A stretch of 64,000 nucleotides of DNA from Parcubacteria group bacterium (GTDB lineage: Bacteria; Patescibacteriota; Minisyncoccia; Phycocordibacterales; UBA2135). Every line of letters starts with the position of its first letter. Position 1 is the stretch's first letter. Location of the stretch: positions 48,824 through 112,823 of the forward strand of contig JACPBB010000002.1 in NCBI GenBank assembly GCA_016180525.1, in the 5' to 3' direction. Below are positions 8,435-51,077 of the stretch, piece after piece. The notes beneath the pieces are model-generated. The model saw nothing but the letters and a program-made list of their open reading frames with translations, was not told the DNA's origin and made no database searches. Both the position numbers and the translations under genes were made by a program.

Positions 8435-8484
8435 AAAAATCAGTATTTAGTATAGAGTATTTAGTATGAAGTTTCAAGAAAACT

Positions 8485-8516
8485 AAAAACCTTTCGATGC
8501 TGTCGAAAGGTTTTTA
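8485..8516. terminator. bidirectional terminator downstream of rplS
   Basis: AAAACCTTTCGA...TCGAAAGGTTTT hairpin. Confidence 0.5.
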
Positions 8517-9005
8517 GTTTTCTTTTTCTGATTTTGCCTCTGCCGCAAGGACAACGGGTCCTTTGCTTGTACTCTCTGCTTCGACCGCTTCACTATTCTC
8601 GGCCGCAAGTACTGTGGGCAACTCTTTCTTCTCTTCTTTCGGCTCAACGGGAACAAAGTCAGCGAGTCCTTTCATTTTTCTCCTGATTTCCCGAGCTGTT
8701 TTTTCGCGAATGTAATAGAGCTTGCTCCGACGAACTTTAGAGCGACGAATGACTTCAATTTTATCTATAACCGGTGAGTAGAGCGGAAAAATTTTCTCAA
8801 CCCCAACTCCGGAGGCAATTTTCCTTACAGTAAAAGTAGCTCCTGGCTCTCTGCCATGCTTACGAGCAATGACGAGCCCCTCAAACGCCTGAAGGCGTAT
8901 TTTGCCTTTTTCATCCTTTATTTTCTGCCACACGCGTACAGTGTCCCCCGCCCGTATGAGAAGCGCGCGTCGTTCGTTTATATTAACCGGTGAAAGTGTA
9001 ATCAT
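8514..9005 (-). CDS. rplS: 50S ribosomal protein L19 with C-terminal extension
   Basis: GDTVRVW...[11 protein letters not shown]...[22 protein letters not shown] core is typical of L19. Confidence 0.85.
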
Positions 9006-11736: not shown

Positions 11737-11910
11737 CTACTTCGTCTTGTAGAAGATCGTGATCGTGACGTCGTGGTCCAGGCGTCCGGAGGCGTCCTGC
11801 ATGGTTCGCGTGATCTCGATCTTGTCGCCCATCTTGTCGAGCCACGCATTGATCCGCTGTTCCAAGCCCTCCGCATCGTTGCAGCCGTAGAAGACTTTCA
11901 CTCGTTCCAT
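11737..11910 (-). CDS. small hypothetical protein (57 aa) in a GC-rich islet
   Basis: Strong RBS GAAGGAGG lies 8 nt upstream of the ATG (MERVKVFYGCNDAEG...). A hairpin plus T-run lies downstream. GC content is clearly higher than the surroundings. Confidence 0.5.
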   Translation of the reverse strand: MERVKVFYGCNDAEGLEQRINAWLDKMGDKIEITRTMQDASGRLDHDVTITIFYKTK

Positions 11911-16138: not shown

Positions 16139-16311
16139 AGTATGTAGTATATCGCATCTTGCCTTGCCCGGTAGCGAGCCTTGCTCTGGTACTGGGGTAG
16201 TTTTGTATATATAACAATAATGAACCCTTAAAGATACAGGGTTGTTTGATACTTTATACTTGATATCAGAGCACTAAACACTCTTTTTGTGCTTTTAGTG
16301 CTCGACCGAGC

Positions 16312-16354
16312 ACATAATTTGCAAATTATGTGCTCGGGCTTTATACTTGATAAT
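16312..16354 (+). promoter_or_regulatory. 13-bp-arm inverted repeat (CGAGCACATAATTT/AAATTATGTGCTCG) fused to GGCTTTATACTT promoter-like element, abutting a start codon
   Basis: Near-identical architecture recurs at 45121-45165 upstream of pilB. TATACT lies about 10 nt before the ATG, consistent with a leaderless transcript. Confidence 0.45.
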
Positions 16355-16827: not shown

Positions 16828-16866
16828 ACGTCCCTTTCCGATAGATATCGGAAAGGGACGTTTTGC
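16828..16866 (+). terminator. rho-independent terminator after tRNA-Ser
   Basis: ACGTCCCTTTCCGATA/TATCGGAAAGGGACGT 16-bp stem followed by TTTTG. Confidence 0.65.
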
Positions 16867-16930: not shown

Positions 16931-17398
16931 ATGGAAGAAGAACAAAAAAATATCACCTGGAAAACACTTGAACATAAACATGCCCACAAAGACCCTGACT
17001 GGTTTTGGGGTATTGGCATTATTGCCACATCAATCGCGATTATATCCATCATTGGCGGAAATCCGCTGTTTGCCGTTTTAATCGTTATTGGAGCAGTTAC
17101 ACTTTTCCTGCACGCAATAAAAATACCCCAGAATATAGAGGTGCGTGTCAGCGCGGATGGTATTTTAATTCACAATGCTCTTTTCTCATATGAACAGCTT
17201 GAGTCATTTAATGTTGAAAATAACGAGCACGACTCCTTTATTATTTTAAAATCAAAAAGAATTTTAACCCCACGAATTATTGTTCCGCTCAAGGCGGGAC
17301 TGGAAAAAGACGCACGGGGTGTGCTTCTCAAGTATCTCAAAGAAGAAAAACTTGAAGTTCCGATATCGCATCGCCTTCTTGAATTTTTAGGATTATAA
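16931..17398 (+). CDS. hypothetical membrane protein (155 aa)
   Basis: Two N-terminal TM helices. A terminator follows at 17404-17439. Confidence 0.55.
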   Translation: MEEEQKNITWKTLEHKHAHKDPDWFWGIGIIATSIAIISIIGGNPLFAVLIVIGAVTLFLHAIKIPQNIEVRVSADGILIHNALFSYEQLESFNVENNEHDSFIILKSKRILTPRIIVPLKAGLEKDARGVLLKYLKEEKLEVPISHRLLEFLGL

Positions 17399-17403
17399 AG
17401 AAA

Positions 17404-17439
17404 ATCGCCCCGATTAATATCGGGGCGATTTTCTTTTTT
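17404..17439 (+). terminator. rho-independent terminator
   Basis: ATCGCCCCGATTAATATCGGGGCGAT hairpin followed by TTTCTTTTTT. Confidence 0.6.
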
Positions 17440-19129: not shown

Positions 19130-19723
19130 ATGAAACAAATGAGATACTTTGGATTCTTGTTTTCCATCTTTGCGCTCATTTTTGCCTTGACATTACAAAA
19201 TAGCGCAGAGGCGGCTCTCCCGTCGCCGCAGGAAAACGCTCGTCCGGAAAACGTTACACCACTTTCGGTCTCCAAAACATGGACCATTCCTCAAGAAAAA
19301 AGAAGCGCCTACTATCCGAACGCGGAAGCGTTCGAGGCGATGGTAGACAACCTTCACGTGCGTGGAACCGACGCGGGAGAGGGCACGCACAGGGTGATCC
19401 TGACGCTCACCGCCGGCACCCCCCGCACTGAGGGCTCGGTTGCGTACTTCTTCATATCCCCAATTGCGTTTGAAGGTATATTCATGTGGATGCTCGAAGA
19501 ATACGAAGAGCGTGAAGGAGGTCTCAACGTGAGGTTCTGGTTCTTCTCCGATGAAATTCGGAGTTACGAAGCGGATCTGTTTGGCGGTGCGCCACCCAGT
19601 CCGTCAGAATATTTCATGCCAGAGAATCCGGGATGGGACACGGCAGTGAAGAAATCCCGTCTTGCGTGGAAATTGCTCTGTGAGAAATACGGATGCATCC
19701 CGCACCGCTATAACGCGTTCTAA
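19130..19723 (+). CDS. secreted hypothetical protein, GC-rich (likely horizontally acquired)
   Basis: Signal peptide MKQMRYFGFLFSIFALIFALTLQNSAEA. Codon usage and GC are clearly elevated against flanks. A terminator hairpin lies at about 19758-19788. Confidence 0.6.
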   Translation: MKQMRYFGFLFSIFALIFALTLQNSAEAALPSPQENARPENVTPLSVSKTWTIPQEKRSAYYPNAEAFEAMVDNLHVRGTDAGEGTHRVILTLTAGTPRTEGSVAYFFISPIAFEGIFMWMLEEYEEREGGLNVRFWFFSDEIRSYEADLFGGAPPSPSEYFMPENPGWDTAVKKSRLAWKLLCEKYGCIPHRYNAF

Positions 19724-39397: not shown

Positions 39398-39470
39398 CCG
39401 CCCATAGCTCAGCTGGTAGAGCAGCTCCCTTTTAAGGAGAAGGTCCCAGGTTCGATTCCTGGTGGGCGGA
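39398..39470 (+). tRNA. tRNA-Lys (anticodon TTT)
   Basis: Acceptor stem CCGCCCA/TGGGCGG. D-arm GCTCAGCTGGTAGAGC. Anticodon loop CTTTTAA. T-loop TTCGATT. Confidence 0.85.
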
Positions 39471-39888
39471 TTTGATAAAAAGGAAAATTTGTTTTAAAAA
39501 CAAAAGTTATCCACATATGATATTGCTCCCTTCGCGTCACAAGATACAATAAAGGCAGACCTGAAATACGTCTTATTGAAAAACTTTAGCCGGTAAGGCC
39601 TCAACATTTCGTTCAATACAAAGACGCATTTCAATTGTTCCATTAAAGTCATTTTTTGACTCTATTTTTTAAAGCCCGATTGCTAGAAACCCGCAAACCA
39701 TTGCGGGTTTCATTATTGCCAAATTTTAATGAGTTTAAACGAATATAAAATTTGAGCACCCCGTTAGAAGTTTTTATGTTATACCAGCATATTATTGATG
39801 GTAGCCGTAGGCGGATTCGCTTGCGTATATTATTTCACCTCTTGGCGCGCGCTGAACTTTCTAATGGGGTAAGCCCACAAAATATTTT

Positions 39889-40599
39889 TTAGAGATTAAG
39901 CACGAATCGCTCAAGCGCAACGCGCATGTCATGGAGCCCGCGCCGCGCGTCGTGGTAGAGAGAAACGAGGGCCTCCGAGAGATTTTCAAGCTCTTCCGTA
40001 GAATAGTTATTCGCAAACCGTTTTGTTTTCTGATACACAAAGGGGTGAAGTCCCGGATTTTCTCCTTCCCGCTTCACCAAAAGCATATTTTTGATTTGAG
40101 AAAAAAATGTGCCAAGTATCTGCTCCGGCTTAAGACCTTCTCCATCAATCGCCTTACAAAACAATACCCATGTTTTTTTGCGGTCTCGTGCGCCAAATGC
40201 GTCTCCAAGCGCAAAGGAGTTAATGTTTCTTTTTTGTCCTTTTTCTTTCTCTGACTTCCATATTTTCTGCGCGTGCGCAGTAATCTTTTTTATAAACGCC
40301 GCCTCAATTTTCTCTTCAAGTAATACAAAAACATTCGGGGATTCCGCAAACTCTTTTAAACGTTCTTCAATAAATGCTTTCGCCTCCGGCGCAAGAAGGG
40401 CATTTCGCAAAAGAATAATATGCTCGCGCTCAAAAAGTCCCTGCCCGTGTAGGAGCTCTTCAATATCCCGAATATTAAAATTTTCCTCTCCGTATTCAAA
40501 AAAGGACGCGTTCGGTTTTTTCTCAAACAATTTTTCTAAAAACATATCGCACTTTTTGCGACTTTCATCAGCGTTGTTTCCATAAAAAAGATAAATCAT
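39889..40599 (-). CDS. holA: DNA polymerase III subunit delta (HolA-like)
   Basis: MIYLFYG N-terminus and a delta-subunit-like helical C-terminus. Adjacent to polA. Confidence 0.65.
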   Translation of the reverse strand: MIYLFYGNNADESRKKCDMFLEKLFEKKPNASFFEYGEENFNIRDIEELLHGQGLFEREHIILLRNALLAPEAKAFIEERLKEFAESPNVFVLLEEKIEAAFIKKITAHAQKIWKSEKEKGQKRNINSFALGDAFGARDRKKTWVLFCKAIDGEGLKPEQILGTFFSQIKNMLLVKREGENPGLHPFVYQKTKRFANNYSTEELENLSEALVSLYHDARRGLHDMRVALERFVLNL

Positions 40600-40619
40600 G
40601 CTAAATTTTAAATTTGAAA

Positions 40620-43007
40620 TTATAAATTTGCAATTTGCAATTTTTTCAACTCTCCCCAATTATCTCCTACAGATACATCAACAATGAATGGAATGTCGGT
40701 TTTAACAATATGTTCCATAATGTGTTTAATTTTTGGCACAACTGCTGAAACTGCGTCTTTTTTAATTTCATAAACAAGCTCGTCGTGCACCTGTAAAAGT
40801 AAAAATACCTTATCAGCTAGATTTTCTTTAGTGAGCATTTCATTCACGCGGATAATCGCGAGTTTAATAATATCCCCCGTTGCGGTCCCTTGTATGGGGG
40901 CATTCACTGCCATGCGCTCTGCCGCGCTTCTGATATAGGGAATATTTGAATGAATACCCTCAATATAGCGACGTCTTCCAAAAAGCGTTTCCGTATAGCC
41001 CCTCTTCGCGGTTTCTTGTTTTATGTGCTCAATATACTTCGCGATTCCAGGAAATTTTTTAAAATAATCATCATAAAATTTTTGCGCTTCTTCGCGGGTA
41101 CTTTTGAGTGACCGCTGAAGCGATGTAATCCCCATACCATAAATAATGCCGAAATTAATCACCTTCGCCTTCCTGCGCATATCTTTATTTACTTTGTGAA
41201 GAGTGACCCCGAATATGTGAGCGGCAACGGCCGCGTGCACATCAACTCCCTCCTGTAAAATTTTCGTAAGTGTTTTCTCTTTTGATAACAACGCAAGAAC
41301 CCGCAGTTCAATCTGCGAATAATCAAGTGCGACAAGCGAAAATCCTTTGTCCGCGCGAAATGCCATCCGAATTTCGTCTCCATATCCTCCGCGCGCGGGA
41401 ATATTCTGCATATTCGGGTCTTTTGACGACATGCGACCCGTTGTTGTTCCTGTTTGAATAAATGTTGTATGCAGTCGCCCATCTTTTGAAACCATCTGCG
41501 GAATATTATCAACATATGTTGAAAGTAGCTTTTGCAGTTCCCGATAGCCTAAAATGTGCTCAATAATGGGGTGAGCGCCCTCAAGTTTTAAAAGTTCCGA
41601 CTCGCGAGTTGAGCGCGCACCTCCCTCTGTTTTCCGCAACCCTTTGAGAGAAAGTTTCAGGTGATCAAAAAGCACAACCGAAAGCTGCTGTGATGAGTTA
41701 ATATTAAATCTTTCCCCAGCTTCTTTCCAAATGTTATTTTGGAGTTTTTCCAGTGCGTCGTGATATTTTTTAGAAAGTTTTTTCAGGTATGCGGTATCAA
41801 CAATAATTCCCCGCTCACTCGCCTGTTTGAGAAGCGGCAGAAGTGGCAATTCAATGTCGTAGTATACTTTTTCTAGATTTCTTTTTTTGAGTTCTTCAAA
41901 AATACGCTTTTTTGCGCTTGCAAAAGAATCTGTGTGAACAAATTGCAAAATATCTTCTTTTGTGGGACTTGTGATGTTGGAATTAACAAGCCAGAGCGCG
42001 AGAGCAGTTTCTGCAACTTCTTTTTGAGAAATGCTCTCTGATTTCGATGCCTCTTTTTCTTCTGTTGTCTCAACGTCTCCAAACATTTTTTTTGCCCGCT
42101 CGGTGAGCGTTCTGAATTCAAGCTCGTGAAAAAGCGCCGCAACTTTTGAAACATCAAACGACTCCGCAAATGATTTTTCCGGAAGAGAAAAAGAAATGGG
42201 GGCATCGGCGCGAATTGTCGCGAGCGTTTTTGAAAAAAGCGCTTCTTCTTCGCCTTCTTGTAAAAGTTTTATTATGCGCGGCGTTAGACTCTTTTTCGCA
42301 AACTGTTTCTCGTCTTTTTTAAGCGCCCTATACATCTCTTCAATACTTCCAAATCCTTGAATTAGAATTGTCGCTGTTTTCTCTCCGATACCCTTAATTC
42401 CCACAATGTTGTCCGACGGGTCTCCCCGCAAGCCTTTAAAATCAGGAAGAAGTTTTGGAGAGAATCCGAAACGTTTTTCTACGGCCTCTTCGTCGTAGAG
42501 TACCGTGTCGTTTATTCCTTTTTTAAGGGTAAATACCTGTACCCGCCTATCGTCTACAAGCTGGAGCGTGTCCATGTCACCCGAGGCAATCACTATTTCA
42601 ATATCGCCCTTCTGAAGTTTTTTTTTCATCTGCGCGACAATGGTGCCGAGCATATCGTCAGCCTCAAACCCCAATTTTTCATAGATGGGAATGTTAAACG
42701 CCTTGAAAATATCCCGCGAGCGATTCATTTGCGCGATAAGGTCATCTTCCGCTTTGGGCCGCTTCGCTTTATATGCTTCATACGCGACGTGCCTGAACGT
42801 GGGGCCCGGCATATCGTAACAAGCGGCAATATAATCCGGCTTCAAGTCGGCAATGATTTTCATGAGCATAGCGGAGAGACCATAGAGAGCTCCTGTCGGC
42901 TCGCCCTTGCTTGAAGAAAACTCAGGCATGGCGTGATAGCCACGATGGAGAATCGCGTGCGCATCCAGAAGCACTAATCTCTTTGATTTTTTAGATATGT
43001 TTACCAT
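40620..43007 (-). CDS. polA: DNA polymerase I (5'-3' exonuclease + polymerase domains)
   Basis: N-terminal 5' nuclease domain. C-terminal family A polymerase motifs: DYSQIELR, RRxAKxxNFGxxYG and QVHDELV. Confidence 0.9.
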   Translation of the reverse strand: MVNISKKSKRLVLLDAHAILHRGYHAMPEFSSSKGEPTGALYGLSAMLMKIIADLKPDYIAACYDMPGPTFRHVAYEAYKAKRPKAEDDLIAQMNRSRDIFKAFNIPIYEKLGFEADDMLGTIVAQMKKKLQKGDIEIVIASGDMDTLQLVDDRRVQVFTLKKGINDTVLYDEEAVEKRFGFSPKLLPDFKGLRGDPSDNIVGIKGIGEKTATILIQGFGSIEEMYRALKKDEKQFAKKSLTPRIIKLLQEGEEEALFSKTLATIRADAPISFSLPEKSFAESFDVSKVAALFHELEFRTLTERAKKMFGDVETTEEKEASKSESISQKEVAETALALWLVNSNITSPTKEDILQFVHTDSFASAKKRIFEELKKRNLEKVYYDIELPLLPLLKQASERGIIVDTAYLKKLSKKYHDALEKLQNNIWKEAGERFNINSSQQLSVVLFDHLKLSLKGLRKTEGGARSTRESELLKLEGAHPIIEHILGYRELQKLLSTYVDNIPQMVSKDGRLHTTFIQTGTTTGRMSSKDPNMQNIPARGGYGDEIRMAFRADKGFSLVALDYSQIELRVLALLSKEKTLTKILQEGVDVHAAVAAHIFGVTLHKVNKDMRRKAKVINFGIIYGMGITSLQRSLKSTREEAQKFYDDYFKKFPGIAKYIEHIKQETAKRGYTETLFGRRRYIEGIHSNIPYIRSAAERMAVNAPIQGTATGDIIKLAIIRVNEMLTKENLADKVFLLLQVHDELVYEIKKDAVSAVVPKIKHIMEHIVKTDIPFIVDVSVGDNWGELKKLQIANL

Positions 43008-43009
43008 TC

Positions 43010-43456
43010 TTAAATCTTAATAGTTATTTTTCTTTCATGCTCACTAATATGTTCAAAATATATTTTTATTGCGTTTTTGGGAATTGCTTTTTCTATTCTG
43101 TCCGCCCATTCAACAAGAATAATGTTGCGCGAATCTTTTTTTATATCATCCCAGCCGATTTGATGTAGCTCGCCCTCATCTTTGAGCCGATACGCGTCAA
43201 TATGTATAAATTTTGTAAAATCATTTTTTAAAATATCATATGCCCGCAAAAGTATAAATGTAGGACTTGGAACGGTTTCCTCTACTCCAAATTCTTTCGC
43301 GGCCGCTTGAGCAAAATTCGTCTTTCCACTTCCTAAATCTCCGTAGAGCGCGAGCATCGTGGCTTCTTTCCGTTTTGTGTCAGAGAGAATGTTTGCAACT
43401 ATTTCGCGAGCTATTTTTTCCGTCTCTTTCGGATTGTGAGTAATGTGCTCTGTCAT
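43010..43456 (-). CDS. tsaE: tRNA threonylcarbamoyladenosine biosynthesis protein TsaE
   Basis: LYGDLGSGKTNFAQ P-loop and the SPTFIL motif. Confidence 0.85.
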   Translation of the reverse strand: MTEHITHNPKETEKIAREIVANILSDTKRKEATMLALYGDLGSGKTNFAQAAAKEFGVEETVPSPTFILLRAYDILKNDFTKFIHIDAYRLKDEGELHQIGWDDIKKDSRNIILVEWADRIEKAIPKNAIKIYFEHISEHERKITIKI

Positions 43457-43552
43457 ATTTATTTAATTGTAACACGACATTATAAATAGAAAGGGCGCGC
43501 CATCCAAATCCGAAGATTGGATGTCGCGCCCTTGAGTTGTTGGCCGAGTTGC

Positions 43553-44029
43553 TTAGCGCACGCCGCAGAACGGCGAGCCCCAGCCGTGCACACGGCACTG
43601 TTCGGCCGCGTCATTCCAGGCCTGGTTATCGGCGGCATTGCGGACCCACTGGGCTCGAACGTCACCGAGATTCGCGCCGCCCTGGCCGATGCCGAAGCCG
43701 ATGGTGGCTTGCGGCGCCTGAAAGATGACGCCCTGCTGCTGCGGAACCGGAACGATAATGATCTGCGGCTGCTGGTAGACCACGACAGGCGGCTGTGGAG
43801 CCTGAATGATGACCGTCTGGGTCGGATACGAGTGACCGTAGACGACCTGCGGCGGCGTCAGTATCCGGTCGAGCACGAAGCCGGTGAAAGTGCCAGCCGC
43901 GAATGCACCCCAACTGTTACCGCCGTGATTGTGGTGACGGCCGCCGGCGTTGGCGTCGTTGGCGAAGCCAGTGAAGCCGATGGCGATGATCGAGAAGATG
44001 GCAAGCGAAGAGAGAATCTTGCGAACCAT
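43553..44029 (-). CDS. secreted Pro/Gln-rich hypothetical protein, GC-rich islet
   Basis: Signal peptide MVRKILSSLAIFSIIAIGFTGFANDANA. GC is much higher than the surrounding genes. Confidence 0.55.
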   Translation of the reverse strand: MVRKILSSLAIFSIIAIGFTGFANDANAGGRHHNHGGNSWGAFAAGTFTGFVLDRILTPPQVVYGHSYPTQTVIIQAPQPPVVVYQQPQIIIVPVPQQQGVIFQAPQATIGFGIGQGGANLGDVRAQWVRNAADNQAWNDAAEQCRVHGWGSPFCGVR

Positions 44030-44223
44030 TTTTTTGGCCCTCCTTAGGCCGATGTTGAATGGAACCACTTCTAAGCTAATGTAATTATATCATACTTTGA
44101 TATATAAAGTCAAGCCCCCAAACAGTTAAAATACCCTTATTTTACAATCATAAAAATTCAGTTCCAAGGCCTGGCCTTGGAACGGTAAAAATAAAAAGAG
44201 GCGGCATCGTGAGATGCCGCCGG

Positions 44224-44388
44224 CTAGAGATAGAATTCCGGTACTTTTTTTGAGAGGCGCCTACGATTGTGTTTCTCCATCCACTCTCCAGCACTGTCTA
44301 TGAGCCGAAGAGCGGAGATAAGCGTCGCGGCGATTGCGACGATTGCCCACTCTGCAAATTTTCGGGCATTGTCATCTTTCATGTTCAT
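44224..44388 (-). CDS. small single-TM protein (54 aa) in GC-rich islet
   Basis: GGGAGG RBS lies 6 nt upstream of ATG AAC ATG. TM segment WAIVAIAATLISAL. Perfect 9-bp hairpin plus T-run lies downstream. Not in the supplied ORF track (<60 aa). Confidence 0.4.
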   Translation of the reverse strand: MNMKDDNARKFAEWAIVAIAATLISALRLIDSAGEWMEKHNRRRLSKKVPEFYL

Positions 44389-44508
44389 GATCTGCCTCCC
44401 TTAAAATGTTAAATCTGATTGCTTTTTATTATATCAATAAAATATATTTATGTCAAGTGTCTAAAATAATATAAAAGCGCCCCTAACTTGAGGGGCGCGA
44501 TTGCGAAA

Positions 44509-45000
44509 TTAATTAACGATTCTCCATGAACCATCCGGATTTCTGCACGCTGTGCCATAGGCTCGCACCTTCTTGCCGCCGACAGTTACTTCCTGCTGAT
44601 ATTCGCGACAGTATTCACCAGAAGAAGTCTGATATGTGCGAGTAGGCATAATCATTCCAGAGTGTCCGGAATCAGGATTGTGCCACGGAGTTCCGACCCT
44701 GGTGGGATTCGTTTCAAGAGCTACCATAGCAGCGCGCTCAGCGTACATTCTGTCAGCGCGGTCAAGCGAGGCGCCGACTTCACTACCAGCCCATGCACCG
44801 AGAAGGACGCCGAGTGCAGTTGCCGCAAGCTGACCCTTGCCCGAGCCAATCTGCGAGCCAGCGAGTCCGCCGATAGCCCCGCCGATAAGCATTCCGCCTG
44901 TTTGTTTGTTCCCCCATCCATTTGACTGACATGCCGAAACCGAAATCATGAGCGCAAACACAAGTCCAACGCTTAGAATGGCTTTCATTATTCTTTTCAT
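44509..45000 (-). CDS. glycine-zipper lipoprotein (17 kDa surface antigen/SlyB-Pcp-like family), GC-rich islet
   Basis: Lipobox VSAC. Gly-zipper GGAIGGLAGSQIGSG. C-terminal YCREYQQ...GTACRNPDGSWRIV module. GGAGGGG RBS. Terminator hairpin GCGCCCCT...AGGGGCGC lies downstream. Confidence 0.65.
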   Translation of the reverse strand: MKRIMKAILSVGLVFALMISVSACQSNGWGNKQTGGMLIGGAIGGLAGSQIGSGKGQLAATALGVLLGAWAGSEVGASLDRADRMYAERAAMVALETNPTRVGTPWHNPDSGHSGMIMPTRTYQTSSGEYCREYQQEVTVGGKKVRAYGTACRNPDGSWRIVN

Positions 45001-45120
45001 TGACCCCTCCTTTTTGGGCCGCATTGTGGGTGTCAAAACCCGCACAAAGTTTATATGAAGAGAGATTGTGGGTCAAGCTAACCCACCTTTATACCTTATA
45101 CAGAATACCGAAGCACCGAA

Positions 45121-45165
45121 CACATACTTTCAAAGTATGTGCTCTGGCTTTATACTTAAAGATAT
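45121..45165 (+). promoter_or_regulatory. 13-bp-arm inverted repeat (GAACACATACTTT/AAAGTATGTGCTC) fused to GGCTTTATACTT promoter-like element abutting the pilB start
   Basis: Near-identical to 16312-16354. Confidence 0.45.
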
Positions 45166-46845
45166 ATGGTTACATTTGACGAGAACAGGCAAAACAAACA
45201 ACTGGAGATACTGCGCCGCTCTGAAGAAGAGGACGTGGTAAAAATACTTTCTCAAAAATACGGAATTCCCTATCTTGACCTTGGAAGTATTCCTATAAAC
45301 ACGGACGCACTCCGCCTTATTCCCGAAGAAGAGTCGCGAGAAGCAGAGGCCGCCGGTTTTAAGCTTGTCGGCAAAAAAATTTTTGTGGCGGTTCTTTCTC
45401 CCAAAAAAGAGAGAACTCTCATGGCTTTAAAAGAACTTGAGCGCAAGGGATATGAGCCGCTCCTTAATCTTGTCTCAAGACAAGGCCTTGAGCGCGCTTG
45501 GGAGCGTTATAAAGAAATTTCTTTTGCCGAAGAGACGGAGGCGGGGGTTCTTGAAATTTCAAGTCAAAAACTCTCTTCGTTTGTTGAAGAGCTCGGGACA
45601 ATAGAGGACCTTAAAAAACTTATTACCGAAACGATGGGGTCATCCACAAAATATCATGTATCCCACATTCTTGAAATTCTAATTGCTGGCGGCATGGCAA
45701 CTGAAGCTTCCGATATTCACATTGAACCGGAGGAGACTTCCGCAAAATTGCGGCTACGGCTTGATGGAGTGCTTCAAGATTTAATGTTTATTGAAAGCAA
45801 AATATATACCCTCATCAACTCACGCATTAAATTGCTCTCGGGACTCAAGCTTAATGTTAAAGATGAGGCTCAGGACGGCAGATTTAGCATAAAAATTAAG
45901 GATAACGATATAGAAATCAGAACTTCAATAATTCCCGGCGCATATGGAGAGTCAATTGTAATGCGTCTGTTAAATCCTAAAAAACTTTCTGTTTCTTTTG
46001 AAAATCTTGGGATAGAGCCGCGGCTTCTTTCAATTATTGAGCGTGAGCTTGAGAAACCAAACGGAATGATATTAAATACCGGCCCGACGGGATCTGGAAA
46101 AACAACCGCGCTCTACGCTTTTTTAAAAAAAGTGCAAACTCCTGGAATAAAAATTATCACCATTGAGGATCCTGTTGAATATCATCTGCCGGGAATCACG
46201 CAAACCCAGGTTGACGAGGAGGGAGAGTATACATTCGCGCAAGGAGTCCGCTCCGTGCTCCGACAAGACCCTGATGTCATCATGATTGGAGAAATCAGGG
46301 ACAAAGATACCGCACGAACCGCGATTCACGCGGCTTTGACCGGACATTTGGTTCTCGCAACGCTTCACACAAACAACGCTGCCGGAACAATTCCGCGTCT
46401 TATTGATCTGGGAGTTAACAGTAAAGTTATTGGCTCCGCGCTTACGGCGACAATGGCGCAGAGACTCGTGAGAAAAATATGCCTTGAGTGCAAGAAAAAA
46501 CGGGCACCCACCGCCGCTGAAAAGAAAATTATTCAAACTATTATTTCCCGTATGCCCGATATATATAAGCAAGAAATGCCAAAAACATACTCACTGTGGG
46601 AGGGAGAGAAGTGTCTCAAGTGCCACAACACCGGCTATAAAGGAAGAATTGGTATTTTTGAAGCAATACTGATGGATGAACAGGTAGAGAAAGTAACAAC
46701 CCAAAATCCAAGCGAGCGTGAAATTACAAAAGCTGCCGAATCCCAAAATATACTGTCAATGCGGGAAGACGGACTGTTAAAAGTTATGCGGGGCATAACT
46801 TCTCTTTCTGAATTAGAACGAGTGGTTGGACTTGAAGGAGACTGA
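45166..46845 (+). CDS. pilB: type II/IV secretion system ATPase (PilB/GspE family)
   Basis: Walker A GPTGSGKTT. Asp/His boxes. C-terminal CxxC...CxxC zinc motif (CLECK...CLKCHNTG). Confidence 0.85.
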   Translation: MVTFDENRQNKQLEILRRSEEEDVVKILSQKYGIPYLDLGSIPINTDALRLIPEEESREAEAAGFKLVGKKIFVAVLSPKKERTLMALKELERKGYEPLLNLVSRQGLERAWERYKEISFAEETEAGVLEISSQKLSSFVEELGTIEDLKKLITETMGSSTKYHVSHILEILIAGGMATEASDIHIEPEETSAKLRLRLDGVLQDLMFIESKIYTLINSRIKLLSGLKLNVKDEAQDGRFSIKIKDNDIEIRTSIIPGAYGESIVMRLLNPKKLSVSFENLGIEPRLLSIIERELEKPNGMILNTGPTGSGKTTALYAFLKKVQTPGIKIITIEDPVEYHLPGITQTQVDEEGEYTFAQGVRSVLRQDPDVIMIGEIRDKDTARTAIHAALTGHLVLATLHTNNAAGTIPRLIDLGVNSKVIGSALTATMAQRLVRKICLECKKKRAPTAAEKKIIQTIISRMPDIYKQEMPKTYSLWEGEKCLKCHNTGYKGRIGIFEAILMDEQVEKVTTQNPSEREITKAAESQNILSMREDGLLKVMRGITSLSELERVVGLEGD

Positions 46846-46852
46846 GAAAAAC

Positions 46853-46881
46853 AAAAATCCGACACATGTCGGGTTTTTGTT
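46853..46881 (+). terminator. rho-independent terminator after pilB
   Basis: AAATCCGACACATGTCGGGTTT followed by TTTGTTT. Confidence 0.6.
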
Positions 46882-47245
46882 TGCTATACCGTTACACCTC
46901 AAATTTACATATTTTCAAGATTGCGGAGTATTAAAAAATAGAGAAAATGAATTCCAAAGATTCATATGTTTACATAGGTCGGTACGACACCTTTATTCTC
47001 TAAGCAATCCTTTTGAGTCAGAAAACAAAAAAGACAGGCAAATCGCTAAGGGGAACTCCAGCATACACACCGAAGCGGGCACCCAGAGTATCCTCGCAGA
47101 ATACCCTAAAGCCCGAAAGGCCCGATTGCCTAGAGAATAAAAGGTCCTACCGTGTTAAAGAGACTTTATAAGAGTCGCTTGATATAATGAGTATGCAAAT
47201 CAAAAAGCATTAACTACTAATACATGCTAGCATAAATAATAAAAA

Positions 47246-48262
47246 ATGTCAAGTACTCCAAAAAATAAAGATTCCGAACCAAAGTTCTTAGACAACACGC
47301 TTCGCCCGTCAAAATGGGACGAGTATATCGGGCAACGAGGAGTTAAAAATAATCTTCGCATTCTACTGGATGCTGCGGGCGGAAGAAAACAGCCACCCGA
47401 GCATCTCCTCTTCTACGGACCTCCGGGGCTCGGTAAAACAACGCTCGCGCATTTAATCGCGCAAGAAACACGTTCACAGATGAAAGTTACTTCCGGTCCC
47501 GCGATTGAAAAAATCGGAGACCTTGCCTCGCTCCTTACAAATTTATCTCCGGGAGATATTCTTTTTATAGATGAAATACACCGTTTGAGTAAAGTTATAG
47601 AAGAAGTGCTCTACCCCGCGATGGAGAACGGCTCGCTTGATATTATTATCGGCAAAGGCCCTTCGGCGCGCACGATACAACTTGAGCTTCCTCCATTTAC
47701 CCTTATCGCTGCGACGACACGCATAGCCCTTCTCTCTTCGCCTCTGCGAAGCCGTTTTTCGGGCGGAGTATTCCGACTTGAATTTTACAGCGAAGAAGAG
47801 ATCCAGCAAATATTAAAACGCTCCGCGGGGCTTCTTAAAACAAACATTAATGCTGATGCTCTTGCCGAAATCGCGCAAAGAAGCAGATACACTCCGAGAA
47901 CCGCAAATTATCTATTAAAACGATGTAGAGATTTTGGACAAGTAAATAAAAAAAGAGAGCTCACAAAAGAAATCGTAGAGGAGGCTCTTTCTCTTCTTGA
48001 AATTGACGCGCGAGGCCTTACCTCATCAGACCGAAAAATACTTGAGTCAATTATTATGAAATTTAACGGTGGACCCGTCGGAGTAAACACGCTCTCTGCT
48101 GCGACGTCAGAAGAGAGCGCCACCATTGAGGAGGTCTACGAGCCGTATCTCTTACAAATCGGCATGCTTGAGCGAACACCCCGCGGACGGATGGCGACAA
48201 AAGCCGCATATGAGCATTTGGGGCTTCCCCCGCCGCAAGACCCGCAAGAGAGGTTGTTATAA
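47246..48262 (+). CDS. ruvB: Holliday junction branch migration helicase RuvB
   Basis: LLFYGPPGLGKTTLA Walker A and an AAA+ RuvB architecture. Confidence 0.9.
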   Translation: MSSTPKNKDSEPKFLDNTLRPSKWDEYIGQRGVKNNLRILLDAAGGRKQPPEHLLFYGPPGLGKTTLAHLIAQETRSQMKVTSGPAIEKIGDLASLLTNLSPGDILFIDEIHRLSKVIEEVLYPAMENGSLDIIIGKGPSARTIQLELPPFTLIAATTRIALLSSPLRSRFSGGVFRLEFYSEEEIQQILKRSAGLLKTNINADALAEIAQRSRYTPRTANYLLKRCRDFGQVNKKRELTKEIVEEALSLLEIDARGLTSSDRKILESIIMKFNGGPVGVNTLSAATSEESATIEEVYEPYLLQIGMLERTPRGRMATKAAYEHLGLPPPQDPQERLL

Positions 48263-48472
48263 CGAGTGTAGTGAGTATATTTTCTTAACCGAGAGCACTC
48301 AACGTATTGAGTGCTTGGTGCTCAAAAAATGTGGTCGCTTCGCTCCCTATTTATTTGGCATGTCTGGTCATAACAAATGGAGTAAAATTAAACACCCTAG
48401 TATCACAGCGCGAAGCGCTGGCTACGGGGCGGGAAGTGGTAATACAGACTTATCAGAGTAAAATTACATACG

Positions 48473-49006
48473 ATGTCGGGACATAACAAATGGAGTAAAA
48501 TTAAACACAAAAAAGCGGCGGAAGATGCTAAAAAAAGCAAGGCATTTTCAAAGTTTACCCGCCTCATAACGCTTGAGGCAAAAAAAGCAGCCGGAAACAA
48601 AGACGCTCCCGGGCTGCGAACTATCATTGAGCGCGCACGAGCAATTAACATGCCTGCCGATAATATTGAGCGAGCAATTAAAAAAGGTTCTGATAAAGAA
48701 TCCGCAAATCTTGAGGAGGTAACATATGAAGCATACGGTCCGGGCGGAAGCGCGCTCATTGTAGAGGGACTCACTGATAACAAAAACAGGACTTTGGGAG
48801 AATTAAAAATATTATTCGCTGATTATGATACAACTCTTGCCGAGCGCGGAGCAGCACTCTGGGCGTTTGAAAAAACTCCCGACAAAAAGTGGCACCCAAA
48901 AACTACCATGTCTCTTTCAGATGAGAATAAGGAAAAATTAAAACAACTGATTGATATGTTGGAGGAAAACGATGATGTGCAAGCAGTATATACTAATGGC
49001 GGTTAG
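48473..49006 (+). CDS. yebC: YebC/PmpR family DNA-binding transcriptional regulator
   Basis: MSGHNKWSKIKHKKAA N-terminus is characteristic of YebC. Followed by ruvC, as in many bacteria. Confidence 0.85.
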   Translation: MSGHNKWSKIKHKKAAEDAKKSKAFSKFTRLITLEAKKAAGNKDAPGLRTIIERARAINMPADNIERAIKKGSDKESANLEEVTYEAYGPGGSALIVEGLTDNKNRTLGELKILFADYDTTLAERGAALWAFEKTPDKKWHPKTTMSLSDENKEKLKQLIDMLEENDDVQAVYTNGG

Positions 49007-49062
49007 CGTAGAGCGTTTAGCATGAAACACAAGGTTGTTTCCAAATTAAAACAATACATTGC

Positions 49063-49584
49063 ATGAATCGCGACACACGATACAAGTTACACGATATAAG
49101 AGTGCTTGCTATTGACCCAGGATTTGAGCGACTCGGTATCGCCGTCATCGAAAAAAAACAAAAAGGACGAGAGATTCTTCTCTTTTCTTCGTGTTTTAGA
49201 ACTTCCCCGAAATTGCCATTCCCAGAACGCCTAGAATCTGTGGGAAAAGAAATAGAAAAAATGATAAAAAAGTTTAAGCCGCGAGCGCTTGCGATTGAAA
49301 CACTTTTTTTTAACACGAACCAGAGAACAGCCATGCGAGTCGCAGAAGCGCGGGGCGCGATTATGTTTGTATCAAAAAAAATGGGACTTGAAATTTTTGA
49401 ATATTCACCTCTTCAGATTAAAATAGCCATTACCGGATATGGCCGCGCGACCAAAGAACAGATTACGTTGATGATTCCCCGCCTTATAGATATTAAAAAT
49501 AAAGGGGGAAAAACGGATGATGAATATGATGCCATCGCGGTAGGACTTACCCATTGCGCCTCCACGCTACCTGTGGACAAGTAA
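49063..49584 (+). CDS. ruvC: crossover junction endodeoxyribonuclease RuvC
   Basis: RVLAIDPGFERLGIAV and the catalytic acidic residues of the RuvC fold. Confidence 0.85.
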   Translation: MNRDTRYKLHDIRVLAIDPGFERLGIAVIEKKQKGREILLFSSCFRTSPKLPFPERLESVGKEIEKMIKKFKPRALAIETLFFNTNQRTAMRVAEARGAIMFVSKKMGLEIFEYSPLQIKIAITGYGRATKEQITLMIPRLIDIKNKGGKTDDEYDAIAVGLTHCASTLPVDK

Positions 49585-49698
49585 GTGTTCTTAACTATAG
49601 ACAAAAAAACGGGATTTGATACAACTATGGGGACTGCGTGTAACGCATTTAAAAAGGTCATTTAATTTATTATTAGTCATTAAATTCGTAGTATTATA

Positions 49699-49791
49699 AT
49701 GGACGACGAACTTAATGTTTTAGACGAAGAAGAAGCAGAAGACGACGCTCCGATTATGGATGATATGAGCGAAGAAGACGAAGAAGAATAA
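49699..49791 (+). CDS. putative 30-aa highly acidic peptide (MDDELNVLDEEEAEDDAPIMDDMSEEDEEE)
   Basis: ATG directly follows a TATTATAAT -10-like box. A terminator hairpin lies 10 nt after the stop. Not in the ORF track (<60 aa). Confidence 0.3.
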   Translation: MDDELNVLDEEEAEDDAPIMDDMSEEDEEE

Positions 49792-49798
49792 CAAACTA

Positions 49799-49830
49799 AA
49801 AATCATCCCGATTCCTCGGGATGATTTTTA
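49799..49830. terminator. bidirectional terminator (tyrS / acidic peptide)
   Basis: ATCATCCCG...CGGGATGAT stem followed by TTTTT. Confidence 0.6.
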
Positions 49831-49835
49831 GTTTG

Positions 49836-51077
49836 TTATTTTACTTTTATTTTTAAAAATTTTTTCTTTCCTATTTTTAAATTTATATCTGCGTTGATAC
49901 GATAACTGATACTGTCCAACTTAACGCCAGTTTCTGTATTCATAATCGCTCGCCCTTCAATAAGTCTTCTAAATTCAGACTTGGAAGAAACGATGTTTTT
50001 TGCCAATAAAATATTTTCAAGAGTGGCATCCCTAGCAACAGAAATCTCAGTGGCGTCGCTGGGAAATTCTTTTCTCTGAAATGTGCTGACAAAATGTTTT
50101 TCCGCTTCCTCCGCTTTTTTTGCTCCATGATATAGGGCAACAATTTCCTTCGCTAGCTTCATTTTAATGTCTCGAGGATTAATACCCGCCCTCAGTTCTT
50201 TTTTAATGTGCTCTATTTCAGAAAGAGACACGAGGGTGCAATCAATAAACACTTGAATAATGGTGCTGTCTGGAAGCGCCATAACTTTTCCATACATGTG
50301 AGCCGGAGTATCGCAGAGCGCCACATAGCCTCCCTCACTTTTACTCATAAGTTTTCTGCCAGTTTTTGGATTCTCAAGAAGAGTCGTCGCTATAATAAAT
50401 TTTTCTTTATTGTTATATTTCCTCTGAAGTATTCTGCCGGCAAGCATATTAAAAATCTGGTCAGAGCCTCCAATTTCAATGTCTACATCCATCGCAGTGC
50501 TGTCATACCCCTGCATCAACGGATAAAAAAATTCATGCATATATATCGGCCTCCCCTCTTTCATTCGTTTTTCAAACATATCTCGTTCAATCATGTGCTG
50601 CACCGTAAATGAGGACGCTAGTTTCAAAATCTGCTCAAATCTTAATTTCTTAAGCCACACGCTGTTTTGTAATATCTTTGCCGGATTTTTTTTGTCAGTA
50701 AACGAGAGAATGGGAGCAATTTGTTTTTTCCATGTTTTTAAATTCTTTTTTATCTCCTTCAGAGAGAGCGCAATACGCGCGGAATCTTTCCCCGATGGGT
50801 CTCCTATCATCGCGGTAAAATCGCCAAACAAGACAATTACCTCGTGCCCCAGTTTTCGCAATTTTTCAAGCAATATAAAATTTGTTGAATGCCCTAAATG
50901 TAATTCAGGCCCCGTCGCATCAGCCCCAATATAAATACGCAAACGCCTGCCAGAAAGTAGTTCTTTTTTAAGCACTTCCCGCGAAGGAAGAATTTGAAAA
51001 ACACTCCGCGAAAGGAGTTCGTCTATTGCTTTTTCCTCAGTAACAATAAAATTTTTTTTCTTTGCGGAGCGTATCAT
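49836..51077 (-). CDS. tyrS: tyrosyl-tRNA synthetase
   Basis: HIGH-type LHLGH motif and a KMSKS-type KLMSKSEGG motif. C-terminal S4-like domain. Confidence 0.85.
   Translation of the reverse strand: MIRSAKKKNFIVTEEKAIDELLSRSVFQILPSREVLKKELLSGRRLRIYIGADATGPELHLGHSTNFILLEKLRKLGHEVIVLFGDFTAMIGDPSGKDSARIALSLKEIKKNLKTWKKQIAPILSFTDKKNPAKILQNSVWLKKLRFEQILKLASSFTVQHMIERDMFEKRMKEGRPIYMHEFFYPLMQGYDSTAMDVDIEIGGSDQIFNMLAGRILQRKYNNKEKFIIATTLLENPKTGRKLMSKSEGGYVALCDTPAHMYGKVMALPDSTIIQVFIDCTLVSLSEIEHIKKELRAGINPRDIKMKLAKEIVALYHGAKKAEEAEKHFVSTFQRKEFPSDATEISVARDATLENILLAKNIVSSKSEFRRLIEGRAIMNTETGVKLDSISYRINADINLKIGKKKFLKIKVK

Follow-up and report, generated by a model that had tools for sequence, protein, structure and literature searches.

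The window analyzed here is a stretch of 64,000 nucleotides from a contig of a Parcubacteria metagenome-assembled genome, with groundwater as its source. The contig is 412,640 bp long, and proteins P0001 and P0121 bear Parcubacteria group names. Parcubacteria are tiny, single-membrane and probably symbiotic bacteria. Three small ORFs, and no others, lie on the minus strand in a 1.6-kb region between tsaE and a divergent pilB-type ATPase gene. The three ORFs and both flanking genes had been reported in an earlier reading made without database searches (the sequence-only reading), and all were found where it placed them, with Pfam matches for the flanking genes. The features of the region are listed in Table 1.

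Table 1. Features of the region between tsaE and pilB, with positions in the window.
Feature	Position	Strand	Description
tsaE	43010..43456	-	left flank of slot; Pfam TsaE 114 bits; Shine-Dalgarno (SD) site absent; TGTTACAAT -10 box 10 nt 5' of ATG
Intrinsic terminator, secreted-protein gene	43491..43533	-	inverted repeat, 17-bp arms; -28.7 kcal/mol, z -5.7
Secreted protein, 158 aa	43553..44029	-	NCBI HYT93_02265; signal peptide (ANA|GG)
SD TAAGGAGG, secreted-protein gene	44039..44046	-	within small GGCC...GGCC hairpin
Promoter, secreted-protein gene	44084..44113	-	TTGACT-18-TATAAT, 11/12, extended -10 TG
Perfect 11-bp palindrome GTTCCAAGGCC-N-GGCCTTGGAAC	44161..44183	.	T-rich flanks on both sides; -16.6 kcal/mol, z -5.2
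Intrinsic terminator, peptide gene	44200..44221	-	9-bp stem and T run; -18.6 kcal/mol, z -5.2
Single-pass membrane peptide, 54 aa	44224..44388	-	NCBI HYT93_02270; SD GGGAGG at 44395-44400
Consensus promoter, peptide gene	44428..44456	-	TTGACA-17-TATAAT, 12/12, extended -10 TG
Intrinsic terminator, lipoprotein gene	44477..44498	-	8-bp GC stem and T run; -17.2 kcal/mol, z -3.8
Lipoprotein, 163 aa	44509..45000	-	signal peptide, lipobox VSAC (Cys24), glycine-zipper helical hairpin, C-terminal beta domain with Cys131/Cys152 pair
SD AAGGAGGGG, lipoprotein gene	45004..45012	-	5 nt 5' of ATG at 45000
Promoter-like site, lipoprotein gene	45048..45076	-	TTGACC-17-TAAACT, 9/12
pilB-type (T2SSE) ATPase gene	45166..46845	+	divergent right flank of slot; Pfam T2SSE 384 bits

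Parts of the order pilB, lipoprotein, peptide, secreted protein, tsaE recur in at least five other Parcubacteria contigs. Contig L160, from a different species and a different sample, includes both borders and reads ruvB-pilB, lipoprotein, secreted protein, tsaE-polA. L154 holds pilB and the lipoprotein, L158 the lipoprotein, the peptide, and the promoter of the secreted-protein gene, L157 the lipoprotein and the start of the secreted-protein gene, and L161 the peptide, the secreted protein, and tsaE.

The secreted protein is composed of a His/Gly-rich stretch, a hydrophobic zipper-like helix, a Pro/Gln/Val-rich disordered stretch, and a C-terminal helix with two cysteines. Its structural model is poor (pLDDT 55). 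It belongs to a small, fast-evolving family, and its orthologues in L160 and L161 occupy the same slot. A further relative, P0129, is weak, is found on contigs of 66% G+C, and matches mostly in low-complexity sequence. In L163, the zipper half of the lipoprotein is joined to the C-terminal half of the secreted family, a chimera produced by domain shuffling.

The peptide has orthologues of 61 aa in L158 and L161 (52% identity). Its gene is absent from L160 and L157. The peptide had been described as unannotated; in the public record, both it and the secreted protein carry an NCBI entry. Both appeared to be orphans in word-index searches, which exhaustive search and DNA alignment traced to a limit of sensitivity.

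Expression signals and base composition

The SD sites of the three genes (AAGGAGG, GGGAGG, and TAAGGAGG) lie 5-6 nucleotides upstream of the three ATGs. An SD of at least 5 nucleotides is missing in 49 of the 54 larger ORFs of the window, ribosomal protein S20 included. S20 was considered as evidence that highly expressed host genes use an SD and was rejected, as the motif is internal to S20 and the true start is without one. The anti-SD motif has been reported missing in about half of Parcubacteria (PMC9297842).

The sequence-only reading had pointed to strong ribosome-binding sites and GC hairpins on all three genes as features unlike those of the host. The former holds, given that most host genes are SD-less, and a hairpin does follow each gene. 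The hairpins themselves do not set the genes apart, since perfect hairpins with arms of 9-25 bp are present all over the window; hairpin terminators are common host features.

Conservation of these signals differs by gene. Lipoprotein orthologues have TTGACT-type promoters in the same place, and the GGAG-type SD is kept in L154, L157, L158, and L160. The peptide-gene promoter is conserved in L158, and its terminator in L158 and L161. The promoter, 5'UTR, and SD of the secreted-protein gene form a module conserved in L157, L158, L160, and L161, and present twice in L163. A regulatory RNA in the leaders was rejected as a candidate: the sole structure in an alignment of six secreted-type leaders was a 4-bp GGCC hairpin enclosing the SD, and it showed no covariation. 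Rfam identified only tRNAs in the whole window.

If SD-led, GC3-rich units form a class of their own (see the speculative reading below), that class is concentrated in the gap between tsaE and pilB, with further members at 11.7, 19.1, and 32.8 kb, and most other genes would be SD-less and apparently leaderless.

The perfect palindrome previously described upstream of the secreted-protein gene is present as claimed, with one occurrence in the window (0 expected), and was therefore rejected as an element repeated there. It was flagged as terminator-like and is most likely a second (bidirectional) terminator or an insulator hairpin. It sits in a stretch of approximately 44 bp that is missing from L158, and it is absent from the L161 spacer. 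The L160 spacer contains a related palindrome at another place.

In 500-nucleotide bins, G+C is 63% at 43501-44000, 53% at 44501-45000, and approximately 40% elsewhere. The GC-rich block of the sequence-only reading is thus present in two bins, but it is not uniform. The four spacers are host-like at 33-44% G+C, and GC3 is 0.78 for the secreted protein, 0.55 for the peptide, and 0.48 for the lipoprotein, compared with a host mean of 0.38 +/- 0.08. Among orthologues, the GC3 of the lipoprotein ranges from 0.31 to 0.71, a spread as expected for an old gene.

The lipoprotein and its relatives

The lipoprotein matches Pfam PF16998 (17kDa_Anti_2) at residues 80-162 with 39.5 bits (gathering cut-off 26.6) and PF05433 (Glycine zipper 2TM) at residues 36-76, N-terminal to the antigen domain, with 28.9 bits (cut-off 24.2). 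Both scores are above the cut-offs. The VSAC lipobox, glycine zipper, and 17-kDa-antigen type first proposed for this protein are confirmed. NCBIfam gave zipper matches only, all sub-threshold. In an alignment with 39 family members, Cys24 of the lipobox, the predicted lipidation site, falls at their invariant Cys. The glycines of the zipper do not vary in the family, and the C-terminal two-Cys motif is fully kept (C131, R132, E133, C152, R153, D156, G157, and W159). All 33 invariant residues of the RT0821/Lpp0805 family are present (33/33). Judged by sequence, the protein is a bona fide member of this family (17kDa_Anti_2 / glycine-zipper-2TM). That these bacteria use lipoproteins is suggested by lipoboxes in several relatives.

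In the predicted structure, the C-terminal domain is modelled at pLDDT >90, and no solved structural relative of this domain was found. The match to SlyB (7ojf) is limited to the zipper hairpin (query residues 15-83, E 1e-3), and no whole-length sequence similarity to SlyB was found. The predicted lipid-anchored helical hairpin fold is as in the SlyB family.

A total of 1,710 homologues of the lipoprotein were found. The best 80 loci in GTDB species genomes are all from diderm lineages, almost all Pseudomonadota and mostly Alphaproteobacteria/Rhodospirillales, with no Candidate Phyla Radiation (CPR) copy among them. In a neighbour-joining tree of approximately 156 columns, the five Parcubacteria copies group together as one clade among the proteobacterial sequences, with modest support (bootstrap 87/200 and 131/200, or 44-66%). 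The named relatives are all Proteobacteria, which supports inter-phylum transfer. The transfer proposed earlier therefore stands for the lipoprotein, with its diderm best loci and nested copies, but not for a single recent 1.6-kb island. No proteobacterial counterpart of the secreted protein or the peptide was found beside the RT0821 gene in 80 proteobacterial loci, and the idea that the secreted protein was transferred along with the lipoprotein was rejected.

The variable slot between tsaE and pilB

The synteny polA-tsaE / pilB-ruvB is kept in more than 30 relatives. The gap between tsaE and pilB ranges across the clade from 58 bp (L093) to 6.6 kb. By a crude rule applied without a background control, 28 of 32 slots contain one or more tsaE-strand ORFs with a signal-peptide-like start. 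The smaller occupants often have an SD and a high GC3, and in many relatives the contents are unrelated proteins. Across the clade, the gap serves as a variable slot that takes up secreted proteins and lipoproteins.

Synonymous sites are saturated, with dS >1 in all pairs but one secreted-protein comparison (0.81). The lipoprotein has a dN/dS of 0.10-0.21 and tsaE one of 0.12-0.15; the values are 0.39-0.56 in the secreted protein and approximately 0.32 in the peptide. The lipoprotein is thus under purifying selection at a level like that of tsaE. No recent gain was apparent from presence and absence among close relatives; the closest found, with PilB 81-83% identical, all carry the genes. The same gene order in other contigs, together with the saturated dS, indicates that the acquisition is old and not recent. 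Homologs native to the lineage had been named as evidence against transfer. This is half the case here: the genes are native to a Parcubacteria sub-clade, and the lipoprotein is ultimately alphaproteobacterial.

No integrase, recombinase, tRNA, or meaningful flanking repeat was found at the borders, and the nearest tRNA is 4 kb away. A search of plasmid and phage DNA gave no match to the region. At the protein level, the only replicon matches are to Azospirillum and other proteobacterial replicons, along with one weak phage match; an Azospirillum plasmid carries a homologue annotated RT0821/Lpp0805. A mobile vector was rejected on these results.

Interpretation and comparison with known systems

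The region is probably the local content of the clade-wide slot, with a lipoprotein gained once from an alphaproteobacterium and inherited vertically thereafter. The slot would be filled by separate one-gene units, three in this genome, each encoding a small exported protein. Each unit would consist of a sigma-70 promoter with an extended -10 box, a 40-60-nucleotide leader, an SD site, and a hairpin terminator. The sub-clade ancestor would have acquired the lipoprotein from a Rhodospirillales-like alphaproteobacterium, with purifying selection acting since. The 54-aa membrane peptide would be specific to the sub-clade, and the secreted protein would be a fast-evolving, largely disordered member of a small family with a zipper-like helix. 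The slot and vertical inheritance do not account for the persistently high GC3 of the secreted-protein genes.

The lipoprotein would be exported by Sec and lipidated on Cys24. CPR bacteria have been placed in a monoderm clade (10.1101/2021.05.31.446380), and in a monoderm lineage the protein cannot be an outer-membrane protein. In bacteria with no outer membrane, its lipid anchor would sit in the outer leaflet of the only membrane. Domains of the outer membrane are stabilised by the glycine-zipper lipoproteins SlyB and YfgH (10.64898/2025.12.22.696046). The zipper hairpin may dip into the membrane and self-associate as they do, and this would stabilise membrane proteins, lipid patches, or a host-cell contact zone. 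The disulfide-bonded beta domain would face outward. The protein is likely a SlyB/YfgH-like candidate for membrane stabilisation or host contact.

A more speculative reading, to which a low probability is given, is that small exported proteins from GC3-rich, single-gene units with a leader and SD are a distinct accessory class of captured and reshuffled foreign genes for the host contact surface. The lipoprotein would then be host-derived and reused for docking to the host envelope or for mimicking it, and Rhodospirillales-like bacteria would be indicated as the host.

The locus could also be an attack or competition module, in which the glycine-zipper proteins would be effectors that damage the membranes of the host or of competitors, and the 54-aa peptide would confer immunity. 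Glycine-zipper segments have been reported in membrane-damaging toxins (PMC12955049). Zipper-type helices are present in both larger proteins, the small membrane peptide sits between their genes, the secreted protein evolves quickly, and the locus is variable. This is nevertheless unlikely. In Alphaproteobacteria, RT0821 proteins are widespread lipoproteins encoded by one chromosomal copy, with no toxin context in the loci seen, and the lipoprotein here is predicted to be lipid-anchored to its producer and is constrained at the tsaE level. L160 and L157 lack the peptide although they carry both partner genes, which is unusual for an immunity gene.

Quite unlikely is that the genes are accessory components of the type IV pilus, kept by pilB for joint work such as anchoring or as a substitute for an envelope secretin. 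Divergent adjacency to pilB is conserved across the clade, and all slot occupants are exported envelope proteins. However, the content of the slot is not conserved, down to the 58-bp gap of L093 and the unrelated proteins of many relatives, and each gene is served by a promoter and a terminator of its own.

A recent three-gene island, received as a block from a single GC-rich diderm donor and still to take on the base composition of its new genome, is very improbable and largely refuted already. It would fit the high G+C and GC3 of the secreted-protein gene, the raised G+C of the lipoprotein gene, the SD sites missing from host genes, and the proteobacterial relatives of the lipoprotein. It does not fit the shared arrangement at the same place in at least five other contigs with saturated dS, the GC3 spread of the lipoprotein orthologues, the host-type spacers, promoters, and terminators, the 80 proteobacterial loci with nothing resembling the secreted protein beside RT0821 genes, or the lack of mobility features and of plasmid or phage DNA matches.

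A misjoin of proteobacterial DNA into a Parcubacteria contig, which the sequence-only reading had named as a possible refutation and for which the composition jump is the sole point, is excluded: Logan contigs of two other sequencing runs span both borders at 100% identity (SRR12113430 and SRR12113431; matches over 39441-50029 and 39441-47024), L160 has the same order across both borders, and the coding sequences sit in AT-rich, host-type spacers.

The lipoprotein is thus a real case of old inter-phylum gene transfer, and neither an assembly error nor a recent island. To our knowledge, hosts and surface biology are unknown for most Parcubacteria. A diderm outer-membrane-type lipoprotein kept in a single-membrane episymbiont lineage offers a testable case of inter-phylum capture into the cell envelope, and its donor lineage is a candidate clue to the host. 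The locus is also a natural contrast of SD-led and SD-less genes in one small genome. Because the lipoprotein family is known and the gene already annotated, the finding adds context and not a new kind of system.

Three known systems can be compared with the locus. The RT0821/Lpp0805 proteins of Alphaproteobacteria, of the rickettsial 17-kDa-antigen type, have the same length and architecture as the lipoprotein here, with 55-63% identity, and share its C-terminal W-N-P-D-S-G ... C-R-E ... C-R-x-x-D-G-S-W. The CPR copies differ from them in substitutions of their own, such as CQ[ST]NGWG after the lipobox and GA for GK before SLDRAD, and the lipoprotein here differs in its monoderm lineage, Parcubacteria-type expression signals, and variable slot. 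SlyB and YfgH, glycine-zipper lipoproteins of the E. coli outer membrane, assemble into rings and keep membrane domains stable; the C-terminal domain of the lipoprotein is unrelated to them in sequence, and their ring formation and stress role apply here as an analogy only. Hypervariable surface-protein loci (replacement or 'flexible' islands) resemble the slot in their fixed position between conserved genes, in exported proteins that differ by relative, and in fast evolution and domain shuffling. In contrast to such loci, the slot units are very small and monocistronic, have no mobility genes, and carry a common promoter, leader, and SD module in a genome whose other genes are mostly without an SD.

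Composition and expression signals of the three genes

Three minus-strand ORFs lie between tsaE and pilB at exactly the positions given by the sequence-only reading (listed in the table with the other features). The peptide, which that reading called unannotated, already has an NCBI entry. The region had also been described as a GC-rich block. This holds for the coding sequences but not for the four spacers, which are host-like at 33–44% G+C. In 500-nucleotide bins over the two larger genes the G+C content is 63% and 53%, and the rest of the window is at about 40%. Third-codon-position G+C (GC3) is 0.78 for the secreted protein, 0.55 for the peptide, and only 0.48 for the lipoprotein, with a mean of 0.38 ± 0.08 for window ORFs of at least 150 aa. 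The region is a mosaic of GC-rich coding sequences within host-like DNA rather than a uniform island.

Judged by its sequence signals, each gene forms its own transcription unit, composed of a promoter, a leader, a Shine-Dalgarno (SD) site, and a hairpin terminator. The peptide promoter is TTGACA-17-TATAAT (12/12 consensus, extended -10 TG) and that of the secreted protein is TTGACT-18-TATAAT (11/12, also with TG). The lipoprotein promoter site is weaker than both. A leader and an SD of 5–8 nucleotides precede each gene, and the terminators range from −17 to −29 kcal/mol. We regard the separate transcription units and the SD-led design as established.

The proposed contrast in SD use between the region and the host genes was borne out. 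An SD of at least 5 nucleotides is absent from 49 of the 54 larger window ORFs, many of which have a TATAAT-like box 5–10 nucleotides before the ATG, and these two features suggest that most mRNAs of this genome are leaderless. The gene for ribosomal protein S20 also has no SD. The anti-SD motif is reported missing from about half of Parcubacteria (PMC9297842). Contrary to the sequence-only reading, hairpins do not set the region apart from the host, since more than a dozen perfect ones with 9–25-bp arms occur throughout the window. The longest of these, with arms of 16–25 bp, are apparently bidirectional terminators between genes. Runs of A and T lie alongside several of them.

The palindrome noted upstream of the secreted-protein gene is real and occurs once in the window. 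It folds as a 10-bp hairpin with a T-rich tail just past the peptide's own terminator. It falls within a stretch of about 44 bp missing from the orthologous locus L158, and it was not found in the L161 spacer. In L160, a perfect palindrome related to it, TTACCAAGGTC-C-GACCTTGGTAA, lies in the equivalent spacer but on the opposite side of a shared TGTAAAATAAGG motif. A CCAAGG/CCTTGG core is common to the palindromes of the window, L160, and L085 (a relative found by its PilB), and CCAAGG cores recur at non-homologous positions. The simplest reading is that the palindrome would act as a second bidirectional terminator or insulator, because its flanks are T-rich and such hairpins are common in the genome.

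Features of the region, of the window, and of related loci
Feature	Position	Strand	Description
tsaE	43010-43456		left flank
Secreted-protein ORF	43553-44029	minus	158 aa, HYT93_02265
Palindrome	44161-44183
Peptide ORF	44224-44388	minus	54 aa, HYT93_02270
Lipoprotein ORF	44509-45000	minus	163 aa
pilB-type ATPase gene	45166-46845		right flank, divergent
Signal-peptide protein	32846-33277	plus	143 aa, 58% G+C, GC3 0.77
ORF without signal peptide	11737-11910	minus	57 aa, GC3 0.86, strong SD GAAGGAGGT
Signal-peptide protein	19130-19723	plus	197 aa, GC3 0.60, promoter, ~45-nt leader
Ribosomal protein S20 gene	34183-34446	minus
Examples of SD-less starts	2658, 18196, 19006, 33747, 43456
Very long perfect palindromes	8476-8524, 16306-16337, 16828-16861, 17397-17436, 34136-34175, 49787-49840		arms 16–25 bp
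Two palindromes, tsaE–pilB gap	L085 3180-3215, 3310-3345		~27 bp, GGTCTGGCCTTGAGCCAAGGCCAGACC (GGCCTTG/CAAGGCC)
Chimeric lipoprotein	L163 961-1389		142 aa, Hainich groundwater contig, adjoins P0127 (secreted-protein family)
L154			Hainich groundwater; lipoprotein 68% identical, divergent from a pilB 81% identical to that of the window
L157			Logan assembly, run SRR22388032; lipoprotein 67%, directly followed by secreted-gene promoter, leader, SD, and start
L158			ENA metagenome assembly ERZ4903072; lipoprotein 64%, 61-aa peptide orthologue 52%, then secreted-gene promoter
L160			JGI sample; ruvB-pilB / lipoprotein 57% / secreted protein 52% / tsaE-polA
L161, L162			same project as window; peptide / secreted protein (P0125) / tsaE

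Origin and age of the lipoprotein gene

Identical copies of the lipoprotein and the secreted protein are recorded for a "Parcubacteria group bacterium", on a contig of 412,640 bp. The independent Logan contigs L083 and L084 stop at window positions 44428 and 44474, within the AT-rich spacer between peptide and lipoprotein. The possibility of a chimeric assembly, raised in the sequence-only reading, is excluded for practical purposes, because Logan contigs of separate sequencing runs, 100% identical to window 39441-50029 and 39441-47024, span both borders, and because L160, from a different organism and sample, has the same gene order across both.

The gene family is already known, and the lipoprotein gene is annotated as a glycine zipper 2TM protein. 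The lipoprotein scores above the Pfam gathering cut-offs for 17kDa_Anti_2 and glycine zipper 2TM. An alignment of 39 family members has 33 invariant residues, and the lipoprotein retains every one of them, among them Cys24 of the lipobox, the glycines of the zipper, and the pair Cys131/Cys152. The AlphaFold2 model (pLDDT 81, above 90 in the C-terminal domain) predicts a signal helix, a long helical hairpin, and a five-stranded beta domain. A "putative CprR" of a freshwater phage (MW462191.1, 34172-34429) matches the C-terminal domain of the lipoprotein (residues 73-159) at 40% identity.

A search of 5.8 billion proteins gave 1,710 homologues, and the named ones are "RT0821/Lpp0805 family surface proteins" of Alphaproteobacteria. 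Among GTDB genomes (one per species), 414 stretches encode a relative. The best 80 of the 414 are all from diderm lineages, nearly all Pseudomonadota and mainly Rhodospirillales-like Alphaproteobacteria, and include no genome of the Candidate Phyla Radiation (CPR). The four top non-self matches and P0099 come from Parcubacteria-type contigs. Neighbour-joining trees group these five lipoproteins in a single clade that is nested within the alphaproteobacterial sequences, with a bootstrap of 87/200 when 120 unnamed homologues are used and 131/200 when the set is 76 named homologues. The inter-phylum origin proposed earlier is thus upheld. Its direction was from Proteobacteria to CPR, because the family is broad in the former and a single narrow clade in the latter.

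A recent island was considered as an alternative. Between the window and the orthologous loci, dS is saturated (1.1–3.5) in flanking and island genes alike, with the exception of one secreted-protein comparison (0.81). The dN/dS of the lipoprotein is 0.10–0.21, comparable to 0.12–0.15 for tsaE. The secreted protein has a dN/dS of 0.39–0.56 and the peptide one of about 0.32. These values therefore indicate that the presence of the genes predates the divergence of these species and that selection maintains the lipoprotein. The GC3 of its orthologues ranges from 0.31 (L160) to 0.71 (L157), which would be expected for an old gene drifting to host composition. Gene-specific high GC3 persists despite the saturated divergence. 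The peptide orthologue in L158 has the same promoter and terminator as that of the window. We consider the family membership, foreign origin, and vertical retention of the lipoprotein under selection to be established.

Secreted proteins and the variable tsaE–pilB gap

Word-index searches with the secreted protein and with the peptide gave self matches only. By an exhaustive HMMER search, the secreted protein could be placed in a small family composed of P0123 (E 7e-20; from L160), P0125 (from L161), and P0127, with weaker members P0126 and P0129. Its members have in common a signal peptide that ends in ANAGG, a stretch rich in His and Gly, a hydrophobic helix rich in Gly, a segment rich in Pro, Gln, Val, and Tyr, and a two-Cys C-terminal helix. 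The structure model is poor (pLDDT 55) and mostly disordered. In the proteobacterial loci examined, the neighbours of the RT0821 genes include no relative of the secreted protein. The chimeric lipoprotein of L163 consists of an N-terminal half with the lipobox and glycine zipper of the CPR type, followed by a C-terminal half that belongs to the secreted-protein family. This union of two halves is direct evidence for shuffling of domains between units. The chimera and P0127 genes each lie behind the same promoter, leader, and SD module.

A PilB-based metagenome scan gave 69 relatives (PilB 38–63% identical), and 32 of these have polA-tsaE and pilB-ruvB as divergent neighbours, as in the window. 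The shortest tsaE–pilB gap measures 58 bp (L093) and the longest 6.6 kb (L111). On the tsaE strand, 28 of the 32 gaps have one or more ORFs whose start resembles a signal peptide, as judged by a crude rule without background control. In short gaps the occupant is often a single small lipoprotein or secreted protein whose gene is rich in GC3 by the standard of its own genome and is preceded by a strong promoter and a long leader with an SD (for example L085, L090/L091/L143, L104, L121, and L141). The closest relative in the scan, L085, encodes a lipoprotein of 126 aa whose glycine zipper scores 32.6 bits (PF05433) but whose C-terminus is different and Gln/Pro-rich. Because these other occupants use the same design, the expression signals are native to the lineage and not imported with the foreign gene.

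The SD-led, GC3-rich design recurs in three other small window genes, encoding proteins of 143, 57, and 197 aa, none of which has a Pfam match. The first has a TTGACA-17-(TG)TATAAT promoter, a leader of about 55 nucleotides, a weak SD, and a hairpin terminator, as in the island genes. The second has its own promoter, long leader, and terminator. It lies opposite a 165-aa plus-strand ORF that is probably spurious. It is rather improbable that genes with persistently high GC3 and an SD form a distinct, acquired class of surface genes tied to host contact. Such a class, if true, would raise the weight of the finding.

Proposed role of the lipoprotein

New here are the phylum, the envelope type, and the age and retention of the transfer, as well as the variable slot with its common expression module and the domain shuffling. 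The lipoprotein would be exported and lipidated at Cys24. It would be placed on the outer face of a single membrane, given that the clade to which CPR bacteria belong is monoderm (10.1101/2021.05.31.446380). There the zipper hairpin may insert and self-associate in the manner of SlyB and YfgH, two proteins with a stabilising effect on membrane proteins or lipid domains during stress (10.64898/2025.12.22.696046). Alternatively, the lipoprotein may work at the contact zone with a host cell. A pilus accessory and a toxin/immunity module were also considered.
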